Under the pieces are notes generated by a model. The model was given only the letters and a program-made list of their open reading frames with translations. It was not told where the DNA came from and searched no databases. Below are positions 2,465 through 60,397 of a stretch of 64,000 nucleotides of DNA, piece by piece. The first letter of the stretch is position 1; every line of letters begins with the position of its first letter. Where the stretch lies: positions 467,805 to 531,804 of the forward strand of contig NC_057756.1 of the NCBI RefSeq assembly GCF_004010195.1. The letters run 5' to 3'. Made by a program: the position numbers and the translations under genes. Source of the stretch: Chiloscyllium plagiosum (lineage: Eukaryota).

Positions 2465-2491
2465 AAACTAATAATCTCTTCGAGCAACTGG
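2465..2491 (+). CDS. Micro-exon 1 (27 nt, phase 1-1) of unnamed coiled-coil gene; xTNNLFEQL
   Basis: atttcttcctttag|AAACTAATAATCTCTTCGAGCAACTGG|gtaaga; paralogous to exons 9 and 17. Confidence 0.8.
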
Positions 2492-2680
2492 GTAAGAAAA
2501 AAAAATGATTTTGAAGATTTGTCTATGTTTTTATCCAAAGAAAAGTGCATTGAAAAACTTTGGCGGAAGAAACAGAACTGTATGTTTATTCTCGTTTGAT
2601 TTCTTCAACTCAATTCAGCCGTTTTTGACTAATATCGTTTACAGCAGATAATATTGTTAACTAGATAGAAATCTCAATTT

Positions 2681-4925
2681 TAGAACATAGAACATAGAAC
2701 ATTACAGCGCAGTACAGGACCTTCGGCCCTCGATGTTGCGCCGCCCTGTCATACTAATCTGAAGCCCATCCCATCTACACTATTCAATGTATGTCCATTT
2801 GCCTGTCCAATGACAACTGAAATGCACTTAAACTTGGCGAATCTACTACCGATGCAGGCAAAGCATTCCATACCCTTACTACTGTCTGAGTAAAGAAACT
2901 ACCTCTGACATCTGTCTTATACCTATCTCCCCTCACTTTAAAGTTGTGTCCCCTCGAGTTTGCCGTTCCCATACTTGGAAAAAGGCTCTCCCTGTCCACC
3001 CTATCNNNNNNNNTCGTAAGACATTCCTTCCATACCAGGCAACATCCTAGTAAATCTCCTCTGCACCCTTTCCAAAGCTTCCACATCCCTCTTATAATGC
3101 AGTGACCAGAACTATACACAATACTCCAAGTGTGGCCATACCAGAGTTTTGTACAACTGCAGCATAACCTCCTGGTTCTGGTACTCAATCCCTCTATTAA
3201 TAAAGGCCAAAACACTGTATGCCTTCTTAACAACCCTGTCAACCTGGGTGGCAACTTTCAGGGATCTGTGTACATGGACATCGAGATCTCTCTGCTCATC
3301 TGTGCTCCCAAGAATCCTACCATTAGCCCTGTACTTTGCATTCCGATTACTCCGGCCAAAGTGTATCACCTCACACTTGTCCACATTAAACTTATTTGCC
3401 ACCTCTCAGCCCAGTCTGCATCCTATCTATGTGTCTCTGCAGCCTACTACATCCTTCGTCACTATCCACAACTCCACCGACCCTAATGTCGTCCTCATAT
3501 TTACTAACCCACTCTTCTAAGCCCTCATTCAGGTCATTTAAAAAAATGACAAACAGCAGTGGACCCAATACCGACCCTTGTGGTACGCCGCTAATAACTG
3601 GACACCAAGATGAACATGTTCCATCAACTATAACCCTCTGTTTTCTTTCATCAAGCCAATTACTGATCCAAACTGCTATGTCTCCCACAATCCCATTCCT
3701 CCGCATTTTGTATAATAGCCTATTGTGGGGAACCTTATCGAATGCCTTGCTGAAATCCATATACACCACATCAACCGAATCACTCTCAGCTGTTTGGTCA
3801 CTTTGTCAAAAAACTCAATAAGATTAGTTAGGCACGACCTACTCTTCACAAAACTGTGCTGACTGTCCCTGATCAGATATTCTTTTCTAGATGGTTATAA
3901 ATCCTATCTCTTATCATCTTTTCCAACACTTTACCAACAACTGAAGTGAGACTCACTGGTCTGTAATTACCAGGGTTGTCTCTGCTACCCTTTTTGAACA
4001 AGGGAACCACATTTGCTATCCTCCAGTCCTCAGTCACTATTCCTGTAGACAATGATGATTTGAAGATCAATGCCAAAGGCTCGGCAATCTCTTCCCTTGC
4101 TTCCCAGAGGATCCTAGGATAGATCCCATCCGGCCCAGGGGACTTGTCTATTTTCACACTCTGCAGTATTTCGAATACCTCTTCCTTGTGAACCTCAATC
4201 TCTTCTAGTCTAGATGCAAGTATCTCTGTATCTTCCTCGCCAACATTTTCATTTTCTATAGTGAACACTGTCGAAAAATATTTATTTAGTGCTTCCCCTA
4301 TCTCCTCTGACTCCACATACAACTTCCCACTATTATCCTTGATTGGCCCTAATTTATTCTTTTATTCCTGACATACCTATGGAAAGCCTTAGGGTTAACC
4401 CTGATCCTATCAGCCAACAACGTCTCATGTCCTCTCCTGGCTCTTCTGAGCTCTCTTTTTAGGTCTTTCCTGACTTCCTCGTAACCCTCAAGCGCCCTAA
4501 CTGAGTTTTCACATTTTGTCCTAACTTAAGCCTTCTTCTTCTTCTTGACCAGAGATTCCACTTCCTTAGTAAACCATGGCTCACACGTTCTATATCTTCC
4601 TCCCTGCCTGACAAGTACATACTTATCTAGGACATACAGGAGCTTTTCCTTGAATAAGCTCCACATTTTTAATGTGCTCATCCAGTGCAGTTTCCTTCCC
4701 CATTCTACGCTTCCTAAATCTTTCCGAATTGCATCATAATTTCCCTTTCCCCAGCTGTAACTCTTGCCTTTCCCTTTCCATCACTAAAGTAAACCTGACA
4801 GAAGTATGATCGCTGTCTCCAATGTGCTCACCTACTTCCAAATCTAGGCTCGTTACCCAGTACTAAATCTAAAGTGGCTTTGCCCGTTGTAGGCCTGTCT
4901 ACATACTGTGTCAGGAAGCCCTCGT
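2681..4925 (-). mobile_element. CR1-clade LINE (HER1-like), 5'-truncated, decayed ORF2 RT
   Basis: KSPGPDGIYPRIL, YRPVSLTSVVGK, VYMDFSKAFDKVPH, SGVPQGSVLGP; (agaacat)n tail at 2681-2702; 8 N at 3006-3013. Confidence 0.93.
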
Positions 4926-5689
4926 TTAGGCATGATGGATCATTGTTGAGGTCCACTATAGGATTGGGATTACAGATAATGCATGAAATCGGTCGAGGTC
5001 AGCTATCTTCATATTAGGGCACTCCTTCCTTTGCTGAATTACAGTTTGAAGAACAAAAAGAAATATCAGGCAGGTTATGCCTCGGTGACAAATCTCAAAG
5101 CTATTTCAGACATACTGACCACTAGAATCACATGTCAACTGGGAAAGTATTGACAAGTCATTGATGTCCTTTAGCAGTGCATTTTCTGCTGGCTAGGTGA
5201 TCAGAACACTCCACATGAAGTGCTGTCAAGGTGTCGATACAATGATACATTCTACACTTCGTTTGCATGTTCAGGGGATTATCAATACAACTATTATCAG
5301 TGATAAAGCTAAGGGTCTGCTTCCACGCTGTGTGACTCTTTGACTCTATGGAAATAAAGCTAAGGTTGAGACAATAGATGACAATAGGGCATAATTTACG
5401 CAGCCTTTTTTACATCCAAAGAAATAGTTCTCAATATTATATGTGAGGCTACTTCCATTTTTCTGTTTGTCATTAAGGACCTGCATGATTTGAGCTTGCT
5501 CTACTGCTGTAAGTTACAATCTTTCCCTCATGGCTCAGCATCTAAAATACATTCTCTAATTGATGAATTCAACCTGAAGCAGAGCATCTGTTTAAAACAA
5601 AAGCCTCCATTGCAATTTTCCTTAGCTGATCCCCAGGTCTTATCAGAGGGCCACAACTGCACAACTATTTCAAACCCAGTTACTTTGAC

Positions 5690-7486: not shown

Positions 7487-7513
7487 TAAAATCGCAGTTG
7501 GAAAAAGATAAGG
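7487..7513 (+). CDS. Micro-exon 2 (27 nt); VKSQLEKDK
   Basis: ttgtttacag|TAAAATCGCAGTTGGAAAAAGATAAGG|gtaatg; paralogous to exons 10 and 18. Confidence 0.85.
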
Positions 7514-9270: not shown

Positions 9271-10199
9271 TGACGATGACTATAACATGATTAGTTCAAT
9301 AAAAAAAGACATAACGTCCTGTAGGAAGACCAACAAAACTTGATCATGTGGTTGAACATATCAATGAAATTAACAATAAAAAACCTCTAATCAAATCTCA
9401 GTGGTTTTCCCATCCAGAAAACTTGCAAAAAATGTACGCAGAAGGTGATTCGAATTGTATCACATCGATATGCAGGAAGCTAGAAAGGTGTTGTTTTCTA
9501 GATCTTAAAGCAGATACACTGAGATAAAAATGTAATAGAGGTACAGAAAATACCAACGTGTTTCCTTGAAGTGAACATCAATTTCCCTTTTCTTCCCATG
9601 ACAGCTGTAACACAATAGAAAAAAAATTATACATTGATTGGGGCGAAGTGCCTGTTTCCACGCTGTAGGGAATCTAATCTAATCTCTTCTCAAAATAAAT
9701 GGCGTTTAAATATATTTGTAGTGTAAATGAGCAAAACACATTAACTGCTTGTGCATGGCAAAATGAGGCAGTTAGCCCATTGCTCTTGCCTACAACGATT
9801 GGTCTTATATTCAATACGTTTGTAGTTTAGTTTTAGGTAAGTAGATAGTTTTGTTTTGGTTGAATAGTGGGCTGTTTAGTAACAATAGTACTGAGTTATG
9901 GCCTTGTTCTTTGTACTGTTTTTTTTTCCTGTTCTGATGGTGTCTTCTTTCCTTATATGCAAATGTTTTGTAAAAGATTTTTAAAAAACCGTGCGAATTC
10001 TCCAGTGTGACTAACTGAGTGGCTGTTGTCTGTCAGTTACTAATTTTGATTTATCAATGACAATGCAAGGTAAAATAACCTGTGCTGCATTGCATGCAAT
10101 GTTGGTCATGATATACAATGGACATTCCAATTAAGTGCACCGATATCTTAACAGTGCTGATATCCACTCCTGAAAGATTTTCCTTTTTTACTTTTTAAG

Positions 10200-10235
10200 A
10201 TATACGCAGATTGAAGGAAGCTCTGAAAGTTGCAG
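10200..10235 (+). CDS. Micro-exon 3 (36 nt); DIRRLKEALKVA
   Basis: ttactttttaag|ATATACGCAG...GTTGCAG|gtgaga; 26/36 nt identical to exon 11 (hand count). Confidence 0.88.
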
Positions 10236-15325: not shown

Positions 15326-15352
15326 AGGAAAGCTTGGACAGATGCCAAGAAG
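15326..15352 (+). CDS. Micro-exon 4 (27 nt, Cys exon); EESLDRCQE
   Basis: tttctcacag|AGGAAAGCTTGGACAGATGCCAAGAAG|gtaatc. Confidence 0.85.
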
Positions 15353-15850: not shown

Positions 15851-15877
15851 ATTTGCAGCACTATTCGAAAAATGACG
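15851..15877 (+). CDS. Micro-exon 5 (27 nt); DLQHYSKND
   Basis: ctctctgtcgattag|ATTTGCAGCACTATTCGAAAAATGACG|gtaggt; starts DLQ like exon 9 and follows a Cys exon by ~500 nt as exon 9 does. Confidence 0.72.
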
Positions 15878-19578: not shown

Positions 19579-19605
19579 ACCAACACCTGAGAGATGTGAA
19601 AGCAG
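19579..19605 (+). CDS. Micro-exon 6 (27 nt); DQHLRDVKA
   Basis: cttcttgcatcag|ACCAACACCTGAGAGATGTGAAAGCAG|gtaaaa; paralogous to exon 14 (DERLRDAKE). Confidence 0.85.
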
Positions 19606-32451: not shown

Positions 32452-32487
32452 ATTTGACCAAACTCAGAGAAGATCTCAAGCAAAAAG
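32452..32487 (+). CDS. Micro-exon 7 (36 nt); DLTKLREDLKQK
   Basis: ttctttattag|ATTTGACCAAACTCAGAGAAGATCTCAAGCAAAAAG|gtgaaa; paralogous to exon 15. Confidence 0.85.
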
Positions 32488-37332: not shown

Positions 37333-37359
37333 ATGAAGAGCTAATTGAATGTGAGAAAG
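37333..37359 (+). CDS. Micro-exon 8 (27 nt, Cys exon); DEELIECEK
   Basis: attttgtcag|ATGAAGAGCTAATTGAATGTGAGAAAG|gtaact. Confidence 0.85.
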
Positions 37360-37846
37360 GTAACTGGCGGGACGTAATGAAATTTTGAGAAAAAGTGTAT
37401 TGAAAAATTATCTATTTCATTTGCAACACTCTCAGATTTTAAGCTAACATACATTTCAAATTTCATCATTACTGATAGATGCAGACTTGGAAAAACGAAT
37501 CAGTGGTGAGATCACAAAATTGCAGTATCCACTTGCAACAATCGCAAATATTTCCATATGCATTTCAATGACTGATTCTTTAAAACCTCTGATGGTTTTC
37601 AGATGTAATGCTCGTACATTCCTACTATGACGTTATGACATTGCATAAGTTATCTATGCACTCTGAATGGAAAAGCAACAGTAATTCATGTCAAAGCCTG
37701 TCAGTTAGAAATCCATTCAATTTATGCAAATTTGCATTAATGCATTGCACGTATTCTGGAACTTTGTAAAATGTTGGAACTCGACGCAGATTTGCAACCA
37801 GCTGAATATTTTTCGAATATTTTTCTGTGGTTTATTTCCCTTTCAG

Positions 37847-37873
37847 ATCTCCAAGATCTTCTGGAGAAATTAT
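37847..37873 (+). CDS. Micro-exon 9 (27 nt); DLQDLLEKL
   Basis: tttccctttcag|ATCTCCAAGATCTTCTGGAGAAATTAT|gtaagt. Confidence 0.88.
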
Positions 37874-37990
37874 GTAAGTAAGACAAACTAAAGACACTTT
37901 ATGACCTATATAAATGTACTTTTCATTCGAGTTAGATTTTCTTAAGTCCAAAAAAAATTCTCTTTGTAACAAAAGAGAGCTTATTTTAAT

Positions 37991-40420: not shown

Positions 40421-40523
40421 ATGAACTTTAACTATCGTTATTGGTTTTACTGCATTTATTGATCACACTAATACTTGAAATAATTAACAATGACACTGTT
40501 GTTATTGTTGCATTGAATTTCAG

Positions 40524-40550
40524 CTGACGCCATCCTATCAAAGGATAAAG
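40524..40550 (+). CDS. Micro-exon 10 (27 nt); SDAILSKDK
   Basis: gaatttcag|CTGACGCCATCCTATCAAAGGATAAAG|gtaaag. Confidence 0.83.
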
Positions 40551-40719
40551 GTAAAGAAAATAAACTTGAAAACTCTAAATATTTGTTAAAGTTGCAAAAT
40601 TGCTCAGCATGTAACGGCAAATGAAAATATGATAAATGGTTATGACATATCTTGCGTTGATCAAAGCTTTGTTTGGATAGTTGGAGACCTATGTAAGCCT
40701 AAGTTGTTATCATAAACAT

Positions 40720-41270: not shown

Positions 41271-41299
41271 TTCTAAATTAACAATGTAATAAACTCTGC

Positions 41300-43000
41300 A
41301 GATGTGGCTGGGCATGGGATGTGCTGTAGCTGTATGATGTGGGAGTTGGCAGTTCCCATTGTGAACTGCAGCGACCACATCTGCAACAAGTGATGGCTGC
41401 TCGATGAACTTAGGCTCAGAGTTGATGAGCTGAAACGTGAGCGTCAAATACAAAGGTACAACCGATAGGGGGAGGAATATATGGATGCGTCTGAGCTTCA
41501 AACATTGCGACACATCAGGGATGGAGACAGTTACCTGGATGCTGTGTTTCAGGACACATTCACACCTCTCAGACTATCTAACTCGATTTGACCAGTGGTC
41601 AGGGACAGCAGGGTGTGACTGTGAGTGAGGCAGGTAGAGGGATACAGGAGTTAGAGTTGCAGAACCCTCAGCCCTTGTTCTTGTCCAACAGGTTCAAGAG
41701 TTTTGCTCGTTGTGTGAATGCGAATGGGGACTGCAGGGAGGATGAGTCGACTGACCTCGGCACTGTGATGCAATTCAAGTAGGTGGGAGGCATGGACAGG
41801 AAAGCAATGTTGTTGTAATTGGGAGTAGCACAGTTCGAGGCAAAGGCACTGTTCTCTGCAACCAAGATCGAAAGCCCCAAAGGTTGCATTGTCTGCCTGT
41901 CCTCGGGTTTGGCCTATCTCATTTGGGATGCAGAGTAACTTGGAGTGCGAAGGTAAACATCCAGTGGACGCTCTGCGTATGTACCAATCACATTGATAAA
42001 ACTAGGGCAGATGTTCTGCTAAGGGAGTATGAACAGCTGGGATCTAAATTACAAAGCATAACCAAAAAGGTAACAATCTTTGGAGCCACGAGCTAATTGG
42101 AACAGGTTCAATAAGACGAAGAGAGTAAATGCGTGTCTCAAAGATTGGTGTGGGAGAAATGATTTTGAATTTCTGGGACATTGGCACCAGTACTGGGGAA
42201 GAAGGGATCCATTCTGATGGGGTGATCTGCATGTGAAAGATGCTGGGATCAGAGTCCAAGCGAATCGCATAACTAGGGCTTCAGACAGGGCTTTAAACTA
42301 AATAGCGGTGGGGAGCATTCAGTTATCGGGGAAATTAGAAAGCCCGAATTACGGGAGAAGGTAAGAATGTAGAAGTCAGGAAAGGTCATTAAAGTCTCCA
42401 GCACAGGCACAAATGGGACAGAGTGAGTGGAAAGGGTTAGCAATCAATCTCACTGAACAAATGATTGAGAATGAGGAGAGGGACAGTTAATACTTGCCTG
42501 AAGGTGTTATAGCTGAATGCATGCAGTATAAGAAATTACATAAATGACTTTGTGGCGCAGATCGAAATTAGTAGGTATGACGTAGTGGGCATCACAGAGA
42601 TGTGGCTGCAAAGGGATAAGGATTGGGAGCTGAATATTCAAGGATATACATTCTGTCAAAAAGATAGGCAGGTGAGAAGAGGGGATCGGGTGGCTTTATT
42701 AGTAAGAAGTGAAATTAAATCAATAGTAACATGTGAATTAGGGTCAGATAGTGAGAATATATGTGAGTAGAATTGAGGAACCGCAAAAGTGAAAGATAAA
42801 TGTTGGATTTATGTCAGGAACTTGGGTGCAAGCTACACCAGGAGATAGAAAAGATCTGTGGGAAAGGCAAAGTTACAGTCATCATTGTGGGTTTCAATGT
42901 ACAGGTGGACTATGCAAATCTGGTTGGTAGTAGATTGCAAGAAAATAAATTTGTGAAATGTCTACGTGATAGCTTTTTGGCGCAGCTTGTGGTGGATTGT
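41300..43000 (+). mobile_element. CR1 5' part: ORF1 (Cys-rich/zipper + SGNH esterase remnants) and ORF2 APE endonuclease
   Basis: CSCMMWE..DHICNK..ELRLRVDEL; NACLKDWCGRNDFEFLGHW; YDVVGITEMWL..IQGYTFCQKDR. Confidence 0.8.
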
Positions 43001-43550
43001 TACCAACATGCAGATTCTTAGAGGATGATCAATAAATTATTTATGAATAAAATGTTTAAATATAATTATGACCAGGACTTTTAATCAACAGCTATGCAAC
43101 ATTGCCGTGCAAACTGCAGTCATCTTATTTATATTGATCTGCATTACTTTAACATTGTTGAATAATCCAGCTTTAACTTTCTGAGATTCACTGGCGGTCT
43201 GAATGTCAGGTTATAAATAATAAATAATATGATCATTTGGTGGATATTGATTGCTCAATTTTAATTTGAATACACCAACCAGTTAATCATGGAACATATT
43301 TAGGAATGATACCGACTGAGCTTTGGGCCCTCAAACAATTAAAACATAACGGAAGTGGAGTGAAAGTGAAATGCAGTCAGCATGGCCAAATACTGGAAAG
43401 GCACTACAAGCCGTATATTATATGTTCACTTCTGCTGTATTACTCTGCTTTATGTACAATGTCAGCGACAGGATTTCGATGATGCATGGAAGAGATGACA
43501 TAGGTGTGACAAACATGTGCGGGTAAAACACTTGGATAATATTCACAATT

Positions 43551-43830
43551 TAGACTAGATTCCCTACAGTGTGGAAACAGGTCCTGCGGCCCAACAAATC
43601 CACATTGACATGTTGAAGAGTAACCCACCCAGACCAATTTCCTTCTGACGAACACACGTGACCTATGGGCAATTTAGCATGGCCAATGGGAGAAAACCGG
43701 AAGTACGTGGAAGAAACCCATGCAGAGAATGTACAAACTCCACACAGACAATCACCCGAGGCTAGAATCGAACCTGGAACCCAGCTACTGTGAGGCAGGA
43801 GTGCTAACCACTGAGCCACCGTGCCGCCCA
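43551..43830 (-). mobile_element. HE1-like SINE
   Basis: Reverse complement gggcggcacggtggctcagtggttagca. Confidence 0.85.
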
Positions 43831-45523
43831 ATTCATTGGGTCATTTCCTTCATGATTGTGAAGGGACATGCAATTTAAAATGAAACTAGAGAAAGACGTC
43901 AATATTGGAAAAAAATCACTAATTGAATGGAGGGAGAAGGAAACTATAAACAAAAGATGAACTAACACATGAATACGAAAATATGCATGGACAATCTGTA
44001 AACTTGAAACAGGCTGTACTTAATGGAACGAGTATTTGCATGTTGAAAAGTATTGAATGTTAAGGACACATTAAATGATGAAGGAGTTTGTAAATCTCAA
44101 GAAGTAAGATAACAATTTGATTACTATTTGAATTCACTTAAGGCTATCCGACTTCTAACTCACAGAAAAGGAGACTGAAGAAGGAACATAAATGCATGTA
44201 GGCTAGCAGGACTTGAGGATTACAGATTTAAGTTGCTTAATGAAATTCAGCGTTAAATAGACTAGTGCAAAAGAAGATCAAAACCAGCCAGAATATTTAT
44301 TTGTCATAAGGACAGAAAGCAATGACTGTGTTGAGTACTTTTCTCAAACTGGACCATAATAGTCAATGACTTTCATGAACACCCACTTTTAGGATCAATA
44401 CCAATTGGCCGATGGAATTTTCTCGACAGAAAAGTAATGTGATGCATTCTGGAAAACACAAAAACAGTAGCAAGGGCAATTTGTCCAAAATGGCACAGTT
44501 CAAAAAATGCTGATGAAGCACTGAATCTGTTGAGTTGCAATTATTGGAATTAGAAAGTGGGAAGACATTTTGCGAAGGTAGTGGGAACGTTTATTTGATC
44601 ATAGTTTCTTCTGCAGAAATACGTATTAGGAAAGAATGAATTTTATGTTTCATGTTTACAAAGTTCCCAATTAACGAATAACAACATTCTCATATTCACT
44701 TCTGACAACCATAACTTTGGATGGATGTGTAAGTCCTTGAGCTTTTAAAGAGATTTATTAGGTTCATCACAGAAATTAGAGGGGAGAGTTCATGAAGTAA
44801 GGTTCAAAATCCGAATGATTTCTGTTTGCATCAAAGGAATTTGTGTTGAGATTTGAAGTACAGAATTATGCTATTTATGGAGAAGGTCGAAAACGAAAAC
44901 GTATTCCGATTTGATGGTAGTAGAGGTTTTGGGCTAAATTTGTTTTAATATTCGGCAAATGAATGCTGTAAGTTCTTCAAAACAGTTTTTCCTTGCCCCA
45001 ACGAATGGAAACAATTTGGAATCTGCTAACCATAAACATATTGAAGTGCGGAAAAATTGATTGCCAATTGCGGGAAATATTTCGAGAAAGCAAAATGGAG
45101 TGAGATGAATTATTATGTTTTATCACATTAATTAAGTCACAGACCTGTTTCCCTCGTTTTCATAAAAAAACTTGTGAATTTATCGCCGACCGTGTTATTA
45201 TTAACGTAACATGAAGGAGCATGAGAGATTTATTTAGCGTGCAATGTGCAGTTCCTGGACAGAAGACAGAGCGAACATTATCGAGGTCAGTCATTAAGTG
45301 TTCAACCACTAGAAAATGTAATTGCACTTTGGGAGAATAGCTAAAAATGAATATATTAACTGCAAACTGTTGAATAGTCAATGCCAAATAATGCTACAAA
45401 GTAGATAATTTATTCAGGGTGTCAAATGCTGACGTGTAGATCAGCCAGTAGCAAAAAAAAAGCAAAACGCTGAGAATGTTACGAATGAATGCACAATATT
45501 TAATGGATGGATTTTTTTTGCAG

Positions 45524-45559
45524 AAATACGCAGATTAAAGAAAGCTTTGGAAGACAAAC
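45524..45559 (+). CDS. Micro-exon 11 (36 nt); EIRRLKKALEDK
   Basis: ttttttttgcag|AAATACGCAGATTAAAGAAAGCTTTGGAAGACAAAC|gtgagg; clear paralogue of exon 3. Confidence 0.88.
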
Positions 45560-45779
45560 GTGAGGAATGATCTAAATTGTGGGTTATAGTAATTAAAAAA
45601 AACAGATTAAATGCCACCATTAAGGAGTTCCACTGCTACTTATTATCACATCCTTTGAAAACTTTGATCACAATCTTTGATTGCTCATTCTATCTAAGAT
45701 CGTGACCTTCAGGCTATCAAGAATGTCAGGCTCTTTATCACTGCCATGCTTGTTGCTTAAATGAATGTCCATACAGTCA

Positions 45780-46880
45780 TAGAGTCATACAAGTCCTACA
45801 GGATGGAGGCAGGCCCTTTGGTCAAAAATGGCCCACGCTAACCCTATTTCTGCACATTGGCCCATACTCTTCTAAACCTTTTCTGTCCATGTATTTGTCC
45901 AAATGCCCTTTAAATGTTGTTAATGTACCCACCTCAACCACTTCTGCTGGCAGCTAATTCCATATGCATACCACCCTCTGAGTAACATAGTTGACCCTCA
46001 GGTTCTCTTTTATTCTTCCCTTTTAACTTTGAACTAATGCCCTCTTATCCTCTATTCCCCAACCTTGGTTAAAGATTGAGTACACTCACCCTATCCATGC
46101 CTATTATGATCTTATACACTTCTATAAGATCCCACCCACATCCCCAGTCTCCTATGCTCCAAAAAAAAGGACCTAGCTTGTCCAACCTCCCCTTAAACAT
46201 CAGACCATTGAGTCCTGGCAAGATCGTTGTAAATTTCTTCTGCACTCTCCCCCGTTTAATAACAACTTTCATTTGGCAAGGTGACCAAAACTGAGTATCA
46301 TACTCCAAGTGTGGCCTCACCTACGTCCCGTACAACTGCAACATAACTTCTCAACTTCAGTACTCAATGCCCTGACTGGTGGAAGCCTGTGCGCCAATAA
46401 TCTTCTTTACTGCCTTGCCTACATGTGACTCCACCTTCAGAGAACCGTGCACATGAACTTGAAGGTCCCTCTGTTCCACTACACTCCTTATGGCACTAGC
46501 GTTCAGCATGAAACTCCGACCTTAAATGACTTTCCAAAATGGAAGCCCTCACAATTATCTATATTAAACTCCATTTTCCATTCCTTTGCCCACTTACCCA
46601 GCTGATCAAGATTTTACTGCAATTTCTGATTACCTGCCTCACTGTCCACAATACTGCCTATTTTAGTGTCATCTGCAAACTTACTAATCATGCCTTGTGC
46701 ATTCTTCTCCAAATCGTTGATGTAGATAATAAACAGTAATGGGCCCAGCACCAATCCTTGAGGCACTCAATTAGTCACAGTTCTCTAGTCCAGCAAACAT
46801 CCTTCCTCTATTACACTATGCTTCCTACCATCAAACCAATAATGTATCAAATTTGCCAGCTCCCCTGGATTCCAAGCGCA
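45780..46880 (-). mobile_element. CR1 LINE 3' fragment
   Basis: RPHLEYDTQFWSP, DLIEVYKII; (catagagt)n tail. Confidence 0.88.
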
Positions 46881-47687
46881 TTCATATTCAATTGCTTTTT
46901 TGTTTGTTTTCTCCAAATATCGATGGTTAACGGATCTGGGACAATCTGTTGATGCATTTATATGAAGCAGTGCCATTGAAGTAACATCACGTGTGATTAT
47001 AATCAGTGTGCAGATGAAACACAAGCCTTTACACATGCGATCACTTTCTCATGAAGTGTACGTGGGTTACTTTCAAGCTTGAACCGTCAACTTATTGAAT
47101 TGACAGTGATAAAGACTGTATTTAAAGTTTTTTCATCCAGATCAATCATTTTACAAAATATAATATAGCGGATTTCATTTGTCTCATCACACTTTGTAAA
47201 CTTTTCAAATTTACCATAATGAATTTTATTTTGCAATTAGACCCTGGCAACTTCTTCGATAATTATGGTGAGTACCATTGCACATGGAACACAACTCAGC
47301 CTCCAGGCAGCAGAAACCTGTATTACGTTGCTCTGCTCAAGACAAAGATGGGTGGCTTGATTGACCTGTTTAGTAGATGAACTGTTCTTATCTATCATTC
47401 CCTTCCAAATTAAGACTGTAATTTTATGGAAACGCACACAATGCAGATTTTTAATTCCCCTACTCCATCTGTCATTTTTAGGATTGAAGGAAATACGTCT
47501 TCATCAAACTCTGAACTATGCTTTCACTGATAATGCTCATGTTCATCTTCCAGAAAAGATGCTCAGTTCACCTTTTTTTTTTGACAAAAATAGTAAATGG
47601 ATACTATGATATAATCCACTTCCTCGACCAAATGAATTGCAGTTACCCACAAATGCCAAACAATTTATAACATTTATCCCATAACAG

Positions 47688-47714
47688 AAGTGGAACTGCG
47701 AGAATGCAAAAGAG
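47688..47714 (+). CDS. Micro-exon 12 (27 nt, Cys exon); QVELRECKR
   Basis: cccataacag|AAGTGGAACTGCGAGAATGCAAAAGAG|gtaaac. Confidence 0.85.
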
Positions 47715-48788
47715 GTAAACACGTTAATTCTATTGGTTACTCCAAAGTCTTTTGATTTCAGTATAGTTAAGTTAATGTAACATCTGAATAGTTGCGTGAA
47801 TTAACAAAAAGAATAGTTAGGCATTGAATCAGTTTTTCAATGTTCTATAATGGGTGAAAAATATTTGGACAAGTAATGCATACTTAAAATGCGTACTTCC
47901 TTTCTATGATATGCTTGTTATTTTAACACAGACAGAATGGAGGAATTGCATGGACTGCTCAAGATGGACACAATTAAAGATTGACACGATTTTCAATAAA
48001 CAAAAGAAGACTCTGTGAAACTGAAAGAATTTGTGCAAGTGAATACATCCACAAATTAAAAAAAAACTCACCAAGTATGATCAAGAGCATGTAGAAGAAT
48101 TTCAAGATTTCATATTGCCTCCTATAGTCATCAAAACAATTCGATTTTCTAACAGGATAAACAGAAGCAATTGATGTGAAGTCAACCAGCTCCATAAATA
48201 AATCAAATGGAATCTCGTCAGATCATACATTTTAGTGATATTAATTCAATAATTAAAATTTACTCCATGCTATAGAATAATTATTTTCTCTTCTTCAAGA
48301 TATTGTAATTAGAATATTTAACCCCCCCCTCAAAGAGCAAATTTTGCCTTCACTTAATGTGAGGCAAACAAAAATAAATCTCTGTGTCTCGAGACTCTCC
48401 CCAATAGTGTTTGGGCATTGATTAACATGACAGTATTTTTCCTGAGAGGCAATTGAAGAAATAATTGTGATTTCGTTGATCATGCAATTCTTGCCACGTT
48501 TCCTTATTTAACTTATTAAACAATAATGTAATAAGAATGTCACTTCTGGTTAAACTGACATTGTAGTTATTAGATTTGTACGGGTGACATATCAACACTG
48601 TTGTTGGCATTAATCATTCATTTGTATTCTCCACGCTCATAATCAGTTCCATTTGGATATTAAATCAGGAATCAAACGAACGACAAAATGCAATGTCTCG
48701 CTTTTAATCTATTTCAATGATGAATATCATCACAAGAAATTCGAAATGATTTAATTTCATAAGCTGAATTTTTATTTTGCCCATTCAG

Positions 48789-48824
48789 AATTAAATGAAA
48801 CGAAAACAGAACTTAAAGAAGCAG
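48789..48824 (+). CDS. Micro-exon 13 (36 nt); ELNETKTELKEA
   Basis: ttgcccattcag|AATTAAATGAAACGAAAACAGAACTTAAAGAAGCAG|gtgagt. Confidence 0.88.
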
Positions 48825-49439
48825 GTGAGTTTAAAAAAAGACATACGCGTTTTGATTTCCAGTGATAAAGTGTATCTTATGCTTCACTTTAAGAAATTGT
48901 CAATTTATTTATTATGTGGAAGATAACTCTACACGATCCACAGTCGGACCCATTTAGTTATCATAATGACAAAATGCAACACTTCTTTTATTTGTTTACT
49001 GGGGAGAAATAAAAAGCAGGGATGGTCATGGGGGAAGAGTCGAAATTCAGTAGGATCATTCTTAGCCAATTCTCTTTTTGTCTCATTTCAATCTTGTAAC
49101 CTTTACTTAATGAATCCTTTGAATATGTTTCGTCGATTCTGCTGCCATTATGCATGCCCACCAGCAGAAACCAGTGGCTCAAACAAATTTCACATACAAT
49201 GAACTGGTGTAGTGCACCCATGAGTACCTTCAGTGGTATAACAATGCCTCTTTCTATTTGACACTGTCATAAGTTTATGAAATTTGTGAATTTGGTGGAA
49301 CATTGAAATGTGGCAAGGAGAATAATATTTCTGTCTGCTGCAAACTATTTTACAATTCATCTGCCTTGCATCCATTAGAGCAATCCCAACTCTGCTTCGC
49401 ATTTCATTTTCATCTTTCTTTGCTCGCTGCCCAGGAACA

Positions 49440-49800
49440 CAGGATGTCGTGGTGTCGCCTTATGTAGATTTATAAAATCATGATGGGCACAGATAAGGTA
49501 AATAGCAAAAGCATTTTCCCAGGAGCAGGGCACTTTGAAACTAGAAGGCATTAGTTTAAGGTGAGAGGAGAAAGATTTAAAATAAATCTGAGCGACAACT
49601 TTTTCACACAGACGGTGATTCATATGGGGAAAGAAAATGTTAGATGAAGGTGTAGCTATCACATTTAAAATACATTTGGACAGGCAAATGAATGGAAAGT
49701 TTCAGAGGGATACGAAGCAAATGGGATACCTTTAGTTTAGGAGGCATGGACGGATTGTGCTGAAGGGTCTGTTTCAAAGCGTCTGTCCGACTCTCTGATT
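49440..49800 (+). mobile_element. CR1 3' end fragment
   Basis: tttaaggtgagaggagaaagattt, ttttcacacaga. Confidence 0.75.
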
Positions 49801-52800
49801 CTATTACACGTTCCTTCCTCTATTGCACACACTTTTGCCAATCGCTTCACAGATGTTCATATCCACCATCTATTACAGAATTCCTGTACTCTGCATCAAT
49901 TGGCGGTTTCACAAGAAGGTGAAGTAGTCAAAGGCAGTGCAAGAAGAGAGCAGGGAAGGCAAGCAAGACATCATGGTGATCAAAACGTTTGAAACTGATA
50001 GAGGACAAATGCAAAAAGTGGGAAGAGTGACTACGAGAGGAGAACAGAACCATTTGAAAGTGGGAGAAAGTGGTGAGAAGCAGTGATGTTGTAGAGGGAG
50101 TGATGAATAAAACTGAAAGAGGATGGTGTGACAGTATTCCTTCCTTGTCTTTCCTTGTATTGCTGAATATATGTTACTCTTTAAATGCAGGCAACAACTT
50201 AGGACCTTCTAACTAGTAATATTACAATGCAACAAGTGGAAGTTCCTAGGCTGCATATTCGGCATTTGTCATTGAAGCATCTGCAGTCAAGTTGAAAAAC
50301 ATTTCTGACCATTGGTAGAAGAGTAAACTAGCAAGACATTTAGGGCTGACAACAGGGAAGGAACATAAAGGTAAAATAAGTTACATAAATGCAATGGACA
50401 GATTTATTAATTTCAATGTTTTAATATTCTATTCAGTTCACAAAATGAATTAGAGTTATTCAAGGTGACTCAAGCTGGCTTCCTCGGTTTTATCTGTCTC
50501 TGCATTCAGAAAATATTATACTTATAGCATAGTCGAAATTAAATGCTACTAGTGAATTTGAACATGCAGTATCATGTTTGTCAAGCAAATTAGGACACCT
50601 GTGCTATTTTGGGTCTATTGGCATTGCCAAAGTATGATGTTTAATTCAGGTGAAAAGCACATTATACACTATAACTTCGGAGTAGTTATGGGGTGGTTTG
50701 GATTGCTTTGGCCTATAGTGAATTTATGCTTTAATGCATGAGTGCAAATCTCAACATCCAGGATGCTTCCTGGAGGATGAAGTTTATAGATGGTAAAGGA
50801 ATACAATGAAGAGTAGCTGACTTGGTAATTGCATAATACCGGGCGAGAAAGTTTTGCATATTGAAATACCAATATATTTGAAATGCATTTTGCCCCGCTG
50901 AAGAAACAATGAAAATCTTTGAATTGTGTCTTTACAGAGGACAGGTTGGGCGAGTGCTTGAAAGGTGAATTACACCAGTGTATATATGTTGTGCGTTGAA
51001 TTATATTCATACTTTAATCAATATCCAGATATGTCACATAGAAGTTCTGGTTTGTAATTATTTAAAACTCACAAACCTCCTAAAAAAATCTCCGTTTTTA
51101 ACAATAAAAGAGACTAGGCCCCTGTGCAGTAGACTAGGCCCCTGTGCAGGTTGCAGAAAATATATCAAGTTTCACCCAGACGTGACAGTTGAAAGATGTA
51201 CTGGCCTTCCCCTGAAGTCCCAACATCAGAGATGCCAATCTTCAACCGATTATATCATATTCTTTATGTATGCATTCATTTATTAATTTATCCTGTAAAC
51301 ATGAAATAGGGAAATTTAAATGACTGCCAACTTCATCATTGTTCAATTAGAAGCGTTGACAAACTCTAAGACTAAACAGTACTTAGATACTAATAATCTG
51401 GTCACTGGCGTTGAGTACACGAGGGCCATTAAGCTCCTGATCTCAGTACGCATTTGGGAAAAAAGGATAAAATATGAGGCTTGACTGATTTTCCTTGAGA
51501 AGAAAGTAGCACTTGGCAGAATATGGCATCAAGAAGCCCTACCTAAACCGCAGTAACTGGAACCAGGTGTGGTTGTGTGTGCTGTGGCAGGTGATCTCTC
51601 ATTACTTTAAATTGTGCTTAGTGCAAAATAAGATGACTGTGGTGTTTTAAGTCAATGATCTCAGCCCTAGGTATGACAGAATGAATTGTTTAGACCAGGG
51701 ACCTACTTCACAATGACAAGCGCTACGACTCGAGGTCAGAAGTAATGATGTTACTAAAGATTGCACAATAATATTATTGATTCATCAAATGCGGAGGCAT
51801 TTCATGTCCATGTGCAGAAGGACCTGTTCAAAATTAAGGTTTGAGGTGATAAGTTGCAAAGAAAGTTTTCACCTCAACAATACAATTATTGATATCTCCA
51901 ACAAGAGGTAATCTGTCTACTGTCGTTTGATTTAAGAATTTAGCATTTATGAAACTTCCGCTATTGATGCTTATGTGGTTACCATTGATCAGGTATGGAA
52001 CTGCATCAGCCATATGTTTACATGGTAAAAAAAAAGTGACATAGAATCTGTGGAATCTATGGCAAAGAAAATATCTTCATTTCCACAGAAATGCCCATCT
52101 GCAACCTATTGTGTAGAAATTTGAAGTGTAATGGAATACTCTGCATTTGCCTGGATCGTTGAAGCTCTATAAAATTGATAAGCTCAATCATACCCAGGAC
52201 AAAACAGCCTGCATAATTTATATAGAATCATGGAAGGCCATGATTCAGTCAATCACACTAGCGCCTAAAATAAGTACCATTACCTAATACCAATATTCTG
52301 CATTTCTCCCGCACCATTGAATATTGTATGTATCCAAATATTCATCCATAACACTCTTGAAAGCCTTCCCCTCACAGAATTTTAAGCATTCAAGATCTTC
52401 AACGTTGCAGCAGTCTGTTTCATTTCAGAAATGTCCTGCAGTGATTTACTGACGAAGCATCAAAAGAATGTTTTAAATTGATAAGCTGTACTATCTTTGA
52501 GATATTACATATTGCAGCTGATGTACGGTTGATATACCAACTACATGCTCCCCTTCAACATCCAGCATCCTGGCTTTGAACTTTATTGCTTTTCCTTCAT
52601 TTTTAAGGTGTGAAATGCTGGAGCTCCATTCCTCACAGTAGGCCAGATATCTCCAATCTCTCCATAAAGCATTGCAATTAGTATGATTGACAACAAAATC
52701 TAACGAATTTTTCTTGAAAAATATCAGCACAAGATGCAATTTCGTTGAGTTATTAAAAAATCATGCGGCTTCTTGAATGGTTAGAAAATAAGTATTATTC

Positions 52801-53892
52801 CATTTAATGGAAAAGTTATGGAGCCAAAAAACATAGTTTCGTGAGTTTGCTTAAGAACCAACTACAGCAATCTTTTCATGATATGAATTTCTAACACACG
52901 CACAGCATGTGTCAATTGGAGGCAGAGTCAAATATGACCGTTTTAATAAAATTGGATAATAATCTGATGATCAAGAATATGCTGTGCTTTAGTAATAAGT
53001 ATAGGAAACTGATATTACAGAGATTTAGCACTGGTGTAGCACGTAGCATTAGTTTCATCAGGTTTGTCATTACCATTGATTTAATTATGAAGAATTGATT
53101 CGTTTCTTCAATTGATCCTCATACCTTTACTTATGATCTTCTCAGAAATTGAACACAAGTGCAAATCTGACGGTTAGTAAGTTTAAATTAATAAAATTTT
53201 GGAATTTCTTCTGAGTGGTCTACTTTAAAATTGCTATTTAATTTCATAAGCAGTGGTGGTATAGTGATCAGACGAACTGTTTAGCGAAACGATGCAGCCT
53301 TGATCATAATTTTCGTCATACTTCTAGATGCAAATAAATCAGAATATCAAACAGTCGAATACATTTTTAGGTTAAATAAAAAATGCAAATAGATCAGTGA
53401 TCTAAAAATTCCACCTGCATTGTTTAAGCTGCTTGCACCATTCTCCAATTAATTAAAATTGTACTGTGAATTGATATCCGCATTACGAGCCAATGGTAAG
53501 TGGGAATGGTTTGCCTATGCCTATGCAATTTTGAAAGAAAATTAAAGCGCAGTCTGTAAGATGTCATTGCAGTTCTGATTTATTAAAGGTATGATTCCTC
53601 TAAAATGCACTCTTGCACTTTCAGTTGTAAGAAAGGAAACGCAAACATGCATGGTATTGCAAAGAACTGCAAAGCATTTACTCTCGTGAAAACACAATTT
53701 CTAACAAACATGTGGCGTACACAGCCTTTTCACAGTTGTGTGTTGCACTGCATGTATACTGAAGTTAATTTATAAAGTTCAGGGCATTTCCTCCAGATTA
53801 TGAATCAGTTTTTTTAACGTATGTCAGGAACCTTGGAAATTAGCCAGAAGCCAAAATTGACGAACTTTGCAAGTATCAATGTGCTTTTTTTT

Positions 53893-54184
53893 AGATTAGA
53901 TTAGATTACTTACAGTGTGGAAACAGGCCCTTCGGCCCAACAAGTCCACACCGACCCGCCGAAGCGTATACCACCCAGACCCATACTCCTACATTTACCT
54001 CTTCACCTAACACTACGGACAATTTAGCATGGTCAATTCACCTAACCTGCGCATTTTGGGATTGTGGGAGAAAACCGGAGCACCCGGAGGAAACCCACAC
54101 AGCCACGGGGAGAATGTGCAAACTCCACAGAGAGAGTCGCCTGAGGCGGGAATTGAACCCGGGTCTCTGGCGCTGTGAGGCAGG
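53893..54184 (-). mobile_element. 5'-truncated HE1-like SINE flanked by ~105-bp direct repeats
   Basis: (agatt)n tail; repeats 53783-53887 and 54183-54286. Confidence 0.9.
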
Positions 54185-55153
54185 CATTTCCTCCAGATTA
54201 TGAATCAGTTTTTTTAACGTATGTCAGGAACCTTTGCATTAGCCAGAAGCCAAAATTGACGAACTTTGCAAGTATCAATGTGCTTTATGCTACACCGGAG
54301 TGTAAACACCATCAATATGTTATTTGTAGCAGTAGAATAAGACCTGATTAATTTGGACGTCCAATTTGCACTTGGAAACAATTTTTTTTACTGTATCTAA
54401 CTTTTGACTTTCCCAGATGACGTGACGAATTGTCTTTTAATTGCCTCCTGGCTCTATATATTCTGATCTCCCAATCATTTAATGTTGATTTGATTATCCT
54501 TGATACACCCCAATCAACTGCCGCTTCCATCCACTTGAGGATTAATTGTCGTATTATGGAGCAGAAAAAACAAACAAACCTGTGAACATATATATGTTTG
54601 TGGACAAGTATGAGTGCGCATGTTGGCAATGTTTACAATATTTTGACATAATTCGTCTCCAAGGCATTGACGTTGTTGCTTTAACTCAGACATAGTAAAC
54701 ACGTGACATTTTTGCCAATGCACAAAGATAAGTTTCAGTAATATTTCGAATCTGATGTGTGAAATTCCATTTTTCTTTACCACATTTAAATTTTATGTAA
54801 AATTGTGGAGGATAAAGTTCCATCAGCATTGGAATTGGAATTGTTGGTCTAGATAAATTGCATTCACAATTGTAAGATTGTTTTGAGTTGAAAATAACTG
54901 CGAGAATTCCTAATCCATAGTATTTCCATTTCCTTAGAAGTTGGTGGATGAATTCAGCAGAACCTTGAAATACTCTGCATTCGTGAACGATGCCAAATAA
55001 ATGGGAATTAAGTTTTCATTACTGTGCAGACAATCACGTCAGGCCATTCAACTTTGATCCAAGTACTTATGACTCTTAGGTCATCGAATTTAATTTATGA
55101 AGGTGTATCAACACTGTAAATAACCTGAATTGTATTTTTTTTCATCAATTCAG

Positions 55154-55180
55154 ATGAACGTCTGCGTGATGCAAAAGAAG
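55154..55180 (+). CDS. Micro-exon 14 (27 nt); DERLRDAKE
   Basis: catcaattcag|ATGAACGTCTGCGTGATGCAAAAGAAG|gtattg. Confidence 0.85.
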
Positions 55181-55431
55181 GTATTGATCACATCGTAATC
55201 AGAGCTATATACATCCCGATTTGCATCTGGACTTGTATATAGCTTTCATTTCACTTTCAAATTTATTGCATAAGAATGACTTGTCAGTGACATCTCAGTT
55301 TAAATTTCATTATCTCCAGCATTTCAAAATATTATAAAATGTTTATTTTATTTCTCCATGTGTTTATTCTGTGGAAGGAGACAGGCTCAAAACGTGCTGG
55401 AATGTTTACGTCTAATATGTGCACTAAACTT

Positions 55432-55925
55432 GGGTGGCATGGTGGCTCAGTGGTTAGCACTGCTGCCTCACCGCATCAGCGTCCCAGATTCGATTCCAGC
55501 CTCGGGCGACTGTCTGTGTGGGGTTTCGGCCTCTCCCTACAGCTCCAACCCTGGCAACGTCCTTGTAAATCTTTTCTGAACTTTTTAAAGTTTTGCTACA
55601 TCCTTCCGATACTAGAAGAAGGTGAGGAGTGCAGATGCTGGAGAGTCGAGAAGTGTGGTGAAAAACCACAGCAGGTCAGAAAGCATTTGAAAAGCAGGAA
55701 AGTTGATGTTTCAGGCATAAGCCCTTCATCAAGAATGCCCTGATGAAGGGATTATACCCGAATCATCGACTCTCCTGCTGCTTGGATATTGCCTGATCTG
55801 CTGTGCTTTTCCACATGCTTCCGATAGAAGGGAGATGAGAATTGCAACAACATTCCAAAGTGGTCTCGTCAATGTCCTGTACAGCCACAGCATGGCTCCC
55901 AACTCCTATACTCGATGCTCCAACC
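55432..55925. mobile_element. SINE 5' half joined to a minus-strand CR1 piece containing a Penelope-tail hairpin (55615-55815)
   Basis: ggtggctcagtggttagc; cctggcaacgtccttgtaaatc; cccttcatcaag..ctgatgaaggg inverted arms. Confidence 0.7.
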
Positions 55926-56290
55926 TCCCCTAGAACTGCAAATTATTTGGTCCGGCTTCATATAATGACCCTACTTCAGAAATTCCTCTTCCTTTCTTTA
56001 TTTGTTTTGGTTTGTTTCAATGTTTATTTCTATAAATTATTTCCACACTTGCCAGCCTTTCAGGAAATCTATTCCAATTGAAGTCCATGCAGTGATGGAA
56101 CCAAATGCATCCAATAACCTTTACTTTTTGACAGAATTTTTCAGAAGACTTTGTGTTGTCATCAGTGGAAACAAGTTCTCATTCCTACCTTGGTCAGACA
56201 AGTCATGGTCGTTAATCCCTTTTTTCTTTGTTGTAATGGAAATTATTTAATAACGATAATGATTCTAATTTTTATTATTACTGTCTTCAG

Positions 56291-56326
56291 AAATTCAGAG
56301 GTTGAGGATGGATTTGAAGGATTGCG
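56291..56326 (+). CDS. Micro-exon 15 (36 nt); EIQRLRMDLKDC
   Basis: ctgtcttcag|AAATTCAGAGGTTGAGGATGGATTTGAAGGATTGCG|gtaagg. Confidence 0.88.
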
Positions 56327-57068
56327 GTAAGGAGATGGATTATTGATGAATGTTATATTAAGGTGTGTTTTTGCAGCTTCGTTCTTTTGTAAATAACCGT
56401 CTAGCCTACTTAAAAAGGGGCAGTTATCACCCTAATCGGTATGGCATGATACTGCTTATACCATGAAAAAGAAACGTTCGACCGATAGAACTAAATCGGG
56501 ATTATTTCTAGTATCATTTAGCAGAATCACAATAAGTTACATAGGCAAGTGTCAGGACTCTACTCAACCATTTTAAAATAACTTTGTGCATATATTAGAG
56601 ATAAGGGCGTTCAGATTCATAAATTCAAGTGTATCATTTACTTTGACGATTGATCATACATTTCATCGATGACTACAGATTCAAAGCACACTTGTTAGCA
56701 ATCCCAGTACACAGTCTGAAATGTTAGAAATTCCTATAATCGTTATCTGTCGAATTCTGAAAACGAAAATAATATGAATTCTATGCTACTTACTGACCAG
56801 TAGTAATCAAATTGAATGGAGTGACTTAACGGACTGATTCGTCGACTGATTATACTTTTAGTTCAATGTGAACTTACCATGGGATAGTATTTATTCATCC
56901 ATGCCAAATTCTGTGTACCTGGATAATCTTTTCTTTCACACATTAAATGCAATGTGTAGAAAAAAGGCAAATTATATTCTGTTTCAAGGAAAAACAAATG
57001 CATTGCGAATGTATGAGCCACCTTGTTTTCGAGATGTCAACTTAATTTGATATCAATTGTATTCACAG

Positions 57069-57086
57069 AGGAGAACGCTTGCAATA
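57069..57086 (+). CDS. Micro-exon 16 (18 nt, shortened Cys exon); EENACN
   Basis: gtattcacag|AGGAGAACGCTTGCAATA|gtgagt; acceptor/start cacag|AGGA matches exon 4. Confidence 0.72.
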
Positions 57087-57451
57087 GTGAGTCAGCGACA
57101 ACATTTTTTTCCTGTGACATATCTTTTCGACGGATATTCTTTCTTTAAGCATTAGAGGTGGGCCTTGTTAATTGGTCAGTATTATAATAATTTGGCATTA
57201 TACCATTTTACCAAACTGCATCACCCAGATACCAAATATAACACATCTGACATTCAATCCTGTTAAATACAATGGATGTAAATATGCAACGGCAGAGTTT
57301 TGTTGGCGACCAATGCGTGAATACTAAACTCCATTGCATCTCCCTAGAATAATATGTAATCTTGCCGAGTGCAGCCTTTTATTGAACAGTGCTAAGCTGC
57401 TCATTAACCCATTTTGAACTATTCTGCAAATAATTTCTCTTTTTATTTAAG

Positions 57452-57478
57452 AGATCGAAGACCTTCTTCAAAATATAG
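57452..57478 (+). CDS. Micro-exon 17 (27 nt); KIEDLLQNI
   Basis: ctctttttatttaag|AGATCGAAGACCTTCTTCAAAATATAG|gtaagc. Confidence 0.87.
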   Translation, partial: RSKTFFKI

Positions 57479-58959: not shown

Positions 58960-59285
58960 ATAGACTAATAGAGTCCCGACAGGGTAAAAGGATTCCATTT
59001 GACCCATCCAGTCTGCACTAACCCTCTGAACAGTGCCCACCCAGACCTAACCCCCTGCCCAATTCCTGGAACCCTGTATTTTGGCATGGCCAATCCACAT
59101 AACATGCTAATCCATGGCCTCTATGGGACAATTTATCATGGTCAATCCACCTAACATGCACATCTTTGGACTGCCGGCAGAAACTGGAGAAACTGGTGGA
59201 AACCCATGCAGACAGACATGGGAAGAATGTGCAAGCTCCAAACAAGACAGTTAACCAAAAGGGAATCGAGTCGGGTTGATCAACC
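58960..59285 (-). mobile_element. HE1-like SINE (degraded)
   Basis: catctttggactg, aacccatgcagac, aatgtgcaagctcca. Confidence 0.7.
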
Positions 59286-60370
59286 ATTGATGTAACTTTA
59301 ATCAGCAGGATCACTGACTGAACAATGGAACAGTATAAATGATTAATAAGCTAATGGTGCAGGATAGGCATTGCAGTTAGGAACACAACCATCAGTCAAA
59401 GCATGATTAAGTAAATAGGAAAATAACAATTTGGCGAGAGTAGATACTCAACTAAGTGAGAAGAGGAGAAGTGAGAGACTACTAAGTGTATTGATTTTTG
59501 CAAGAGCACTGCAAAATCAGCAGTGCACTTATATTTCAATGTAAGCATTGTCAACGGAAGCCTTATAGCTGTGAAAGATAGCTAACAGTGTATGCGAGTT
59601 GGTTTACATCACAGATCACAATGGAGTAGTAATAAATATTATCATTTAAAAATATTTTTGGAGCAGGCTTAAGTACAGATTTGGCTACCTGAAACAAAGT
59701 ACGCATGGCTGATTAGGCAAATGATGCAGGTGTAAAAGAGTGAAATTCTCAGGAGGATTTATGTCCAGTCTGGATATCAGTATCGTTGCCCCCCAAAAAA
59801 GAAGCTCCTGAACTATTTAAGAGAAAAGTTAAATGATTGGATTATTTAGCACAAAGGAAACACGTTCCTGTGGAGATATGTGTATATTATTAAACTCAGG
59901 ATATTCAATAAAATCTCGCAGTGACAAAGAAGAGCTGTTGCATTCAGGTCAAGTGGGAAAACAAAATAAAGCAATGCCTGAGCATTTGGTGCACTAGGGT
60001 GTGGAGAGAAGGAGCCAGTCGAAATATGATCCTGTTGACTCATCATGTAAACAGATTTCTGAACAGCATGAAAGGGTTATGAGTTAAAGATCTGCTAATG
60101 TCACTCTGACACTGCACACTTTTGGAAGTGAACATTACTTGTGATAATCTGTTCAATTCTTTAACTGTTAATCTATTTTGAGGGAAATATGATTTGCTTA
60201 TTGGACTCATTGTCGTGATTCTTGGAATCTAATTCATTATATATTTCAGAATAAGCGAAACAACTTCATTTCCACACTGGAAAGTAGGATATTGCATTGT
60301 AAAAATGTGTTATTCTTGTTAACAGGAGTTAAATGATACATAATTATCAGTACTGCTATCACTTTTTCAG

Positions 60371-60397
60371 CAAGCAAGTTACTAGAAAAAGAGAAAG
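60371..60397 (+). CDS. Micro-exon 18 (27 nt); ASKLLEKEK
   Basis: actttttcag|CAAGCAAGTTACTAGAAAAAGAGAAAG|gtaact; found where the repeat pattern predicted a LxKDK-type exon. Confidence 0.85.

Follow-up and report, generated by a model that had tools for sequence, protein, structure and literature searches.

A predicted two-exon coiled-coil module in a putative array of probably tandemly duplicated phase-1 microexons of Chiloscyllium plagiosum

A stretch of 64,000 nucleotides from Chiloscyllium plagiosum (NCBI RefSeq assembly GCF_004010195.1, contig NC_057756.1, positions 467,805 to 531,804 of the forward strand), termed here the window and numbered from its first letter, harbors on its + strand a chain of twenty very short segments, which are predicted to be exons of a single gene (Table 1). 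The GC (guanine plus cytosine) content of the window is about 40%, its character is eukaryote-type with dispersed repeats, and self-matches cover 23,469 of its 64,000 bases. The chain is constructed of fourteen exons of 27 nt, five of 36 nt and one of 18 nt, which together would encode 192 residues free of stop codons, while the introns average about 3 kb and the codons at 14 of the 19 junctions are of the form GAN. The window represents the middle of a large gene whose ends lie outside it. The basic module of the array is a pair of exons, one of class A followed by one of class B, which would encode 18 or 21 residues. Exons are referred to below by their first position.

Table 1. Predicted exons of the array and leftover candidates, in positions of the window.
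Feature	Position	Strand	Description
Exon 1	2465..2491	+	class A, 27 nt, phase 1; block 1 start; composition atypical, leave-one-out -1.4
Exon 2	7487..7513	+	class B without Cys, 27 nt
Extra candidate	9418..9444	+	27 nt, gtga donor; class unclear; optional, alternative or chance
Exon 3	10200..10235	+	class A, 36 nt; perhaps a mosaic, its 5' part resembling 45524 and its 3' part 48789
Exon 4	15326..15352	+	class B with Cys, 27 nt; paralogue of 50938, 17/27 nt
Exon 5	15851..15877	+	class A, 27 nt; paralogue of 53146, 16/27 nt
Exon 6	19579..19605	+	class B without Cys, 27 nt; shares 18/27 nt with its paralogue 55154 (uncorrected p=0.003)
Exon 7	32452..32487	+	class A, 36 nt; 15/36 nt to positional partner 56291
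Exon 8	37333..37359	+	class B with Cys, 27 nt; internal gtgag donor +18; block 1 end
Extra candidate	37479..37505	+	27 nt, gtga donor, class B-like; lies 119 nt beyond exon 8, for which it may substitute
Exon 9	37847..37873	+	class A, 27 nt; block 2 start; paralogue of 57452, 17/27 nt
Exon 10	40524..40550	+	class B without Cys, 27 nt
Exon 11	45524..45559	+	class A, 36 nt; paralogue of 10200, 26/36 nt
Extra candidate	47241..47267	+	27 nt, gtgagt donor, class A-like, Pro-Gly; 14/27 nt to 2465; composition -12.7; weakest candidate
Exon 12	47688..47714	+	class B with Cys, 27 nt; in extra 21-aa pair of block 2
Exon 13	48789..48824	+	class A, 36 nt; in extra 21-aa pair of block 2
Exon 14	50938..50964	+	class B with Cys, 27 nt, gtga donor, splice 8.9; newly added
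Exon 15	53146..53172	+	class A, 27 nt, gtta donor, splice 7.2; newly added; match to 15851 p=0.007 uncorrected
Exon 16	55154..55180	+	class B without Cys, 27 nt
Exon 17	56291..56326	+	class A, 36 nt, gtaagg donor
Exon 18	57069..57086	+	class B with Cys, 18 nt; block 2 end; likely 27-nt exon cut by 9-nt donor shift
Exon 19	57452..57478	+	class A, 27 nt; starts third block
Exon 20	60371..60397	+	class B without Cys, 27 nt

A splice-site scan for AG/GT-bounded candidates of 9-60 nt revealed 27-nt segments as 19 of 199 on the + strand against 4 of 160 on the - strand, and at a splice score of at least 7 the + strand retained eleven segments of 27 nt and four of 36 nt, while the - strand retained one of each. 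The 21- and 24-nt candidates (4 and 6 on +, 2 and 3 on -) displayed no clear excess on the + strand. A filter requiring a splice score of at least 3 and a score of at least 2 in a composition model, trained on the 18 exons listed in an earlier note on this DNA, was passed by 15 of those 18 exons and by four of five further 27-nt candidates (47241 fails), with one decoy passing on the - strand over ten length classes. Several candidates were discarded: a 24-nt AG/GT segment at 2071-2094 (splice 6.3) as the exon preceding 2465, the join of which creates a stop; the low-scoring 27-nt segments 3103 and 33854, dropped as background; and a 39-nt candidate at 2541 and 18/21-nt sub-forms of 37333, 37479 and 37847, none counted as a separate exon.

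The exon array is real, and its first inventory was incomplete. All ten queried motifs were recovered on the + strand in AG/GT-bounded phase-1 segments, and the 18 listed exons, among them the 18-nt exon 57069, were rebuilt with sizes, donors and motifs as listed; the quoted similarities were reproduced as well (26/36 nt identical for 10200 and 45524), as was the gtga donor in four of the five 36-nt exons. The companion rule that all 27-nt exons use gta donors was found to be a selection effect, because five 27-nt candidates carrying gtga or gtta (9418, 37479, 47241, 50938 and 53146) were absent from the list. Two of these, 50938 and 53146, complete the chain: the former matches exon 4 at 17/27 nt against 12/27 for the partner that the earlier note implied, and the latter matches exon 5 at 16/27 nt against 8/27.

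With both exons in place, classes A and B alternate strictly through all twenty exons, identity being 0.44 within A, 0.41 within B and 0.30 between them. Hydrophobic residues occupy 43 of 54 core positions, chosen by eye as positions 2, 5, 9 (and 12) in class A and 4 and 7 in class B, compared with 62 of the 192 residues overall. The ten A+B pairs measure, in order, 18, 21, 18, 21, 18, 21, 21, 18, 18 and 18 residues, where 18 residues correspond to a heptad plus a hendecad and 21 residues to three heptads. The heptad and hendecad arithmetic proposed at the outset is therewith retained, with a hydrophobic period of 3.54-3.55 residues, while the Fourier peak expected at 39 residues does not appear (p=1.0 and 0.96).

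The hydrophobic periodicity was compared over all 32 subsets of the five added 27-nt candidates, and the highest value was obtained by adding exactly 50938 and 53146 (T=3.55, power 27.2), whereas the first 18-exon list gave 23.5 (T=3.54) and all 23 candidates gave 16.9; none of 400 shuffles of exon order reached the power of the 20-exon chain. These data bear directly on the model of the earlier note, in which exactly 18 exons form strict four- and eight-exon repeats with cassettes held at 39 residues. That shorter chain is itself periodic and its offset of eight exons is significant (p=0.006), but the two missed exons form one whole 18-residue pair, which explains why periodicity persists in their absence; both are splice-strong (8.9 and 7.2) and provide better partners for exons 4 and 5, and with them the rule that a cysteine follows each 36-nt exon improves from 4/5 to 5/5, so that, with no peak at 39, the model is considered very unlikely. 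The 36-27-36-18 cassette of 39 residues on which it leaned is an artefact, because 50938 and 53146 had been missed, and the corrected fourth cassette reads 27-27-36-18 and encodes 36 residues. Thus the composition of 39 as 18 plus 21 residues stands for the first three cassettes and fails for the fourth, and the argument for selection on a 39-residue unit, which depends on the two missed exons, lapses with blocks of 78 and 96 residues.

The three remaining candidates could in principle belong to the chain, and a reading in which all 22-23 candidates are constitutive would describe a rod with register breaks or hinges and a block offset of 11-13 exons. The passage of four unlisted 27-nt candidates through the filter, against the single - strand decoy, is consistent with that reading, as are the stop-free frame of the 23-exon chain, its offset of 12 (p=0.010 for nucleotides, 0.001 for BLOSUM) and its collinear path (p=0.002). 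We nevertheless regard it as unlikely, for the periodicity falls to 16.9 and splits, the A/B alternation is broken three times, 9418 and 37479 lack a clear partner in the other block, and 47241 fails the composition score. Candidate 9418 (splice 7.3, composition 2.4, class similarity 0.37/0.35) fits the periodicity better when it replaces exon 2 than when it is added to the chain, and replacement of the upstream neighbour by 9418, 37479 or 47241 gave powers of 27.8, 26.7 and 30.5, values that indicate compatibility only. The three segments may therefore be optional, mutually exclusive, decayed or due to chance. In-frame alternative splice sites were also observed 9 nt inside two exons, namely a donor at +18 in 37333-37359 and an acceptor at 37856 in 37847-37873, and each could remove three residues.

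Above the pair, the four-exon unit claimed in the earlier note is discernible in patterns of length, donor and cysteine, although not by identity at a fixed offset. The 36-nt exons constitute a sequence subclass (p=0.008, 2 of 252 splits being as alike), a cysteine occurs in the B exon in five of five cases after a 36-nt exon and in none of five after a 27-nt exon (p=0.008), and gtg donors are found in 4/5 of the 36-nt exons versus 1/14 of the 27-nt exons (p=0.006, or 0.039 with all 23 candidates). Since class features mark it while offset identity is absent, a four-exon ancestor of 39 residues is plausible but would be old.

At the level of the block, the duplication itself stood, whereas the proposed tandem copy of an eight-exon block did not survive in that form: block 1 (2465-37359) comprises 8 exons and 78 residues, and block 2 (37847-57086) comprises 10 exons and 96 residues. 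The difference consists of an extra 21-residue pair around 47688/48789 in block 2 and a 9-nt shortening of its last exon. In the 18-exon list an offset of 8 beats a parity-preserving shuffle (p=0.006, nucleotide), and in the 20-exon chain an offset of 10 reaches p=0.004 for nucleotides and 0.001 for BLOSUM against the same null, 14 offsets having been tried; the collinear alignment of the 18-exon list gave p=0.006. In a tree of pairs, the 15851 and 53146 units group at 92 and the 37847 and 57452 units at 64. Among nine block partner pairs, codon position 2 is identical in 58 of 78 codons and position 3 in 37 of 78 (p=0.001), while the flanks (276 pairs on each side) and nine short introns yielded no alignment that tracks block partners, the top z of 4.7 not falling between partners. 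The persistence of position-2 identity while flanks and introns are unalignable implies that the duplication is old and under protein-level constraint. A block of 13 exons was considered as well and abandoned in view of the periodicity and offset tests.

Two traces of the later history of the blocks can be read at single exons. Downstream of 57086, the first 9 intron nucleotides agree in 7/9 positions with the final 9 nt of 37333, and because no GT follows at +27 a 9-nt donor shift at 57069 is likely. Exon 10200 may tentatively be viewed as a hybrid of 45524-like and 48789-like copies, as suggested by a mosaic test (permutation p=0.0035, or 0.042 without the last 3 nt, with one other of 60 ordered triples equalling its score), in which case block 1 would have lost a pair.

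The same data admit piecemeal growth, by which single exon pairs were duplicated and converted one at a time and the apparent block would be a sum of local paralogies and coiled-coil constraints. The units led by 36-nt exons share 37-60% identity, pair off in no clear way and are poorly supported in the tree, flanks and introns carry no block signal, and one positional pair is weak (15/36), all of which would be expected from such growth; the order of best partners, however, is shared by the two halves (collinear p=0.002-0.006), and the offset signal survives the parity-preserving null, which leaves this course quite unlikely. The order given in the earlier note, a four-exon unit first and an eight-exon block afterwards, nevertheless finds little echo in the sequences. 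The likeness of the two cassettes within a block is barely above background, and a further obstacle is the unit 32452+37333, which shares just 37% identity with its partner 56291+57069 and stands ungrouped in the tree.

Taken together, nested tandem exon duplication producing predicted phase-1 microexons, a 192-residue coiled coil, a pair grammar and selection on register is judged the best explanation and probable as a whole, albeit with considerable doubt. The copying or loss of a symmetric phase-1 exon leaves the reading frame intact. In the proposed course, a 27- or 36-nt exon of class A joined to a 27-nt exon of class B would have given pairs of 18 or 21 residues, the alternation of which would have produced the 39-residue four-exon unit (A27, B, A36 and B with Cys); two such units would have formed a block, and the block would then have been copied in tandem. 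A lone 9-residue exon would move the heptad register by two, while an A+B pair preserves it. Unequal crossing-over in a repeat-rich gene could have generated variants, from which selection on the rod would have retained changes of whole pairs. Later divergence would comprise the gain or loss of a whole 21-residue pair and the 9-nt donor shift that turned a 21-residue pair into one of 18 residues, and since both changes keep the frame and the hydrophobic register, selection likely acted on register rather than on a length of 39 residues. The product would most likely be a long dimeric spacer; its splicing and dimer state, like the order of the duplications and the selection, are what we infer from these patterns. 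The next exon forecast in the earlier note, a 36-nt xIRRLK-type exon, was not found within 60398-64000, the last 3.6 kb of the window.

A number of observations, besides the poorly matched 32452+37333 unit, weigh against this explanation. The splice-site scan employed the authors' own approximate weight matrices, and the class labels and core positions were chosen with the data already in view. Each of 9418, 37479 and 47241 lowers the periodicity when added, two of the three pass the filter used for accepted exons, and their exclusion was made partly by periodicity, the very criterion under test. Regarding the four-exon unit, no identity at an offset of four exceeds the two-class alternation (p=0.88 for 18 exons, 0.86 for 20), the B subclasses show no nucleotide-level difference (p=0.13), and the two kinds of unit led by 27-nt exons are 28-39% alike and form no single clade. 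Non-partner exons of one class also agree at codon position 2 (0.52) more than at position 3 (0.35), so that the position-2 excess between block partners is partly a matter of composition. A 165-nt assembly gap (33631-33795) lies within the element at 32885-37184 described below. Finally, no joint of the chain is backed by a spliced read: of four RNA runs compared with 37290-57289, the two raw-read ones at about 2% and 6% of their reads, two produced no alignment, and in the other two the listed differences and joints fell in repeat-rich stretches, none of the 15 joints listed of 100 linking exons.

The identity of the protein was approached by similarity searches. Neither a single-exon frame (11 candidates) nor a ten-exon profile (1135 candidates) retrieved a relative at E<=10, both queries being too short for sensitivity, and P0001, the one match of the full HMMER scan, aligns only to intron-derived positions 15-29 and was rejected. 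All 40 of the 40 open reading frames (ORFs) of at least 110 residues were searched against Pfam, which gave RVT_1 matches only, in 5 ORFs, with no Ig-V, IgC, transmembrane (TM), B30.2 (PRY-SPRY), RING or B-box domain found among them in the window. Tetherin-sister and CD23-stalk ideas obtained no support in the literature searched. The lack of a transcript among the reads and of a related protein in the profile searches would suit segments that are never spliced, either remnants of a dead gene or fortuitous matches, but the AG/GT ends are intact, the frame is open over 20 exons, length and strand are enriched, the exons are conserved amid unalignable introns, and the periodicity depends on exon order, which renders this explanation extremely unlikely.

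The surroundings of the exons contain several repeats. The intron after exon 32452 holds a recent insertion at 32885-37184, an element of about 4.3 kb with 450-bp inverted ends that are 97% identical and a reverse-transcriptase fragment at 36419-37069; within it, two 150-bp tandem copies at 35999-36297 (98% identical) represent a recent duplication or an assembly artefact. Direct repeats of 152 bp at 37991-38142 and 39464-39615, about 1.5 kb apart and 98.7% identical, correspond to a small insertion of the long-terminal-repeat type or to a recent local duplication. The segment 8764-8909 is an 83% copy of 9446-9588, which lies just after candidate 9418, and is situated 700 bp upstream in a fragment resembling a long interspersed nuclear element, suggesting a local templated insertion. 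A tandem array with a 10/30-bp unit, of about 17 copies of 30 bp, occupies 1265-1792.

No such microexon array was described in the full-text literature searched, most subscription papers lying outside its coverage. If the explanation preferred here, nested duplication under register selection, is confirmed, the exon boundaries would record how a coiled coil was lengthened, each surviving change being a whole pair or a shift of three residues, and selection at the level of register would become testable across sharks. It would also furnish a guide for annotating a type of gene that exon finders would easily miss: classes A and B alternate, a Cys comes after each 36-nt exon, and every pair encodes 18 or 21 residues.

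As regards process, nested repeat hierarchies built through exon-block duplication are familiar from the super-repeats of nebulin and titin and from the 54-nt exons of collagen, yet the likeness is one of process only, as the folds differ and the exons there are larger. In TRIM proteins, a RING and a B-box precede the coiled coil. Butyrophilins, as outlined in the parts of the sources consulted, display IgV-IgC-TM followed by a short heptad-repeat region and then B30.2 (PMC12841164, PMC8813856), and they differ in that their heptad region between membrane and B30.2 is short, whereas this slice alone provides 192 residues of mixed heptads and hendecads. A bolder proposal, which we hold to be improbable, is that the two-exon grammar varies stalk length both in evolution and by splicing, with 9418, 37479 and 47241 mutually exclusive with their upstream neighbours and 10200 a pair-deletion hybrid, such that giant shark genes in a cluster would produce rods variable in length and sequence ahead of a B30.2 recognition domain, as a diversification system distinct from the tails of BG genes and butyrophilins.

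The closest known design, as far as the consulted portions of the literature extend, is that of the cytoplasmic tails of chicken BG proteins, which are encoded by 13-36 exons per gene, each 21 or 24 nt in length and carrying a single heptad (PMC4046983). The predicted coiled coil is described as long, and the genes are reported to be alternatively spliced and to have been reshaped through unequal crossing-over or through deletion (PMC4046983, PMC8813856). Both systems distribute a coiled coil over many small frame-preserving exons, represented here by 20 symmetric exons with a period of 3.55 and predicted splicing, and the copying of exons in tandem within a heptad tail is already known from the chicken BG genes; supplementary figures on BG exon groups may be relevant to how closely the duplication patterns agree. 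The BG genes possess upstream Ig-V and transmembrane exons; none was found within this window, beyond which the ends of the gene lie. In contrast with the 21- and 24-nt BG exons, each of which carries one heptad, the exons here measure 27, 36 and 18 nt, and the register is kept only by the A+B pair.

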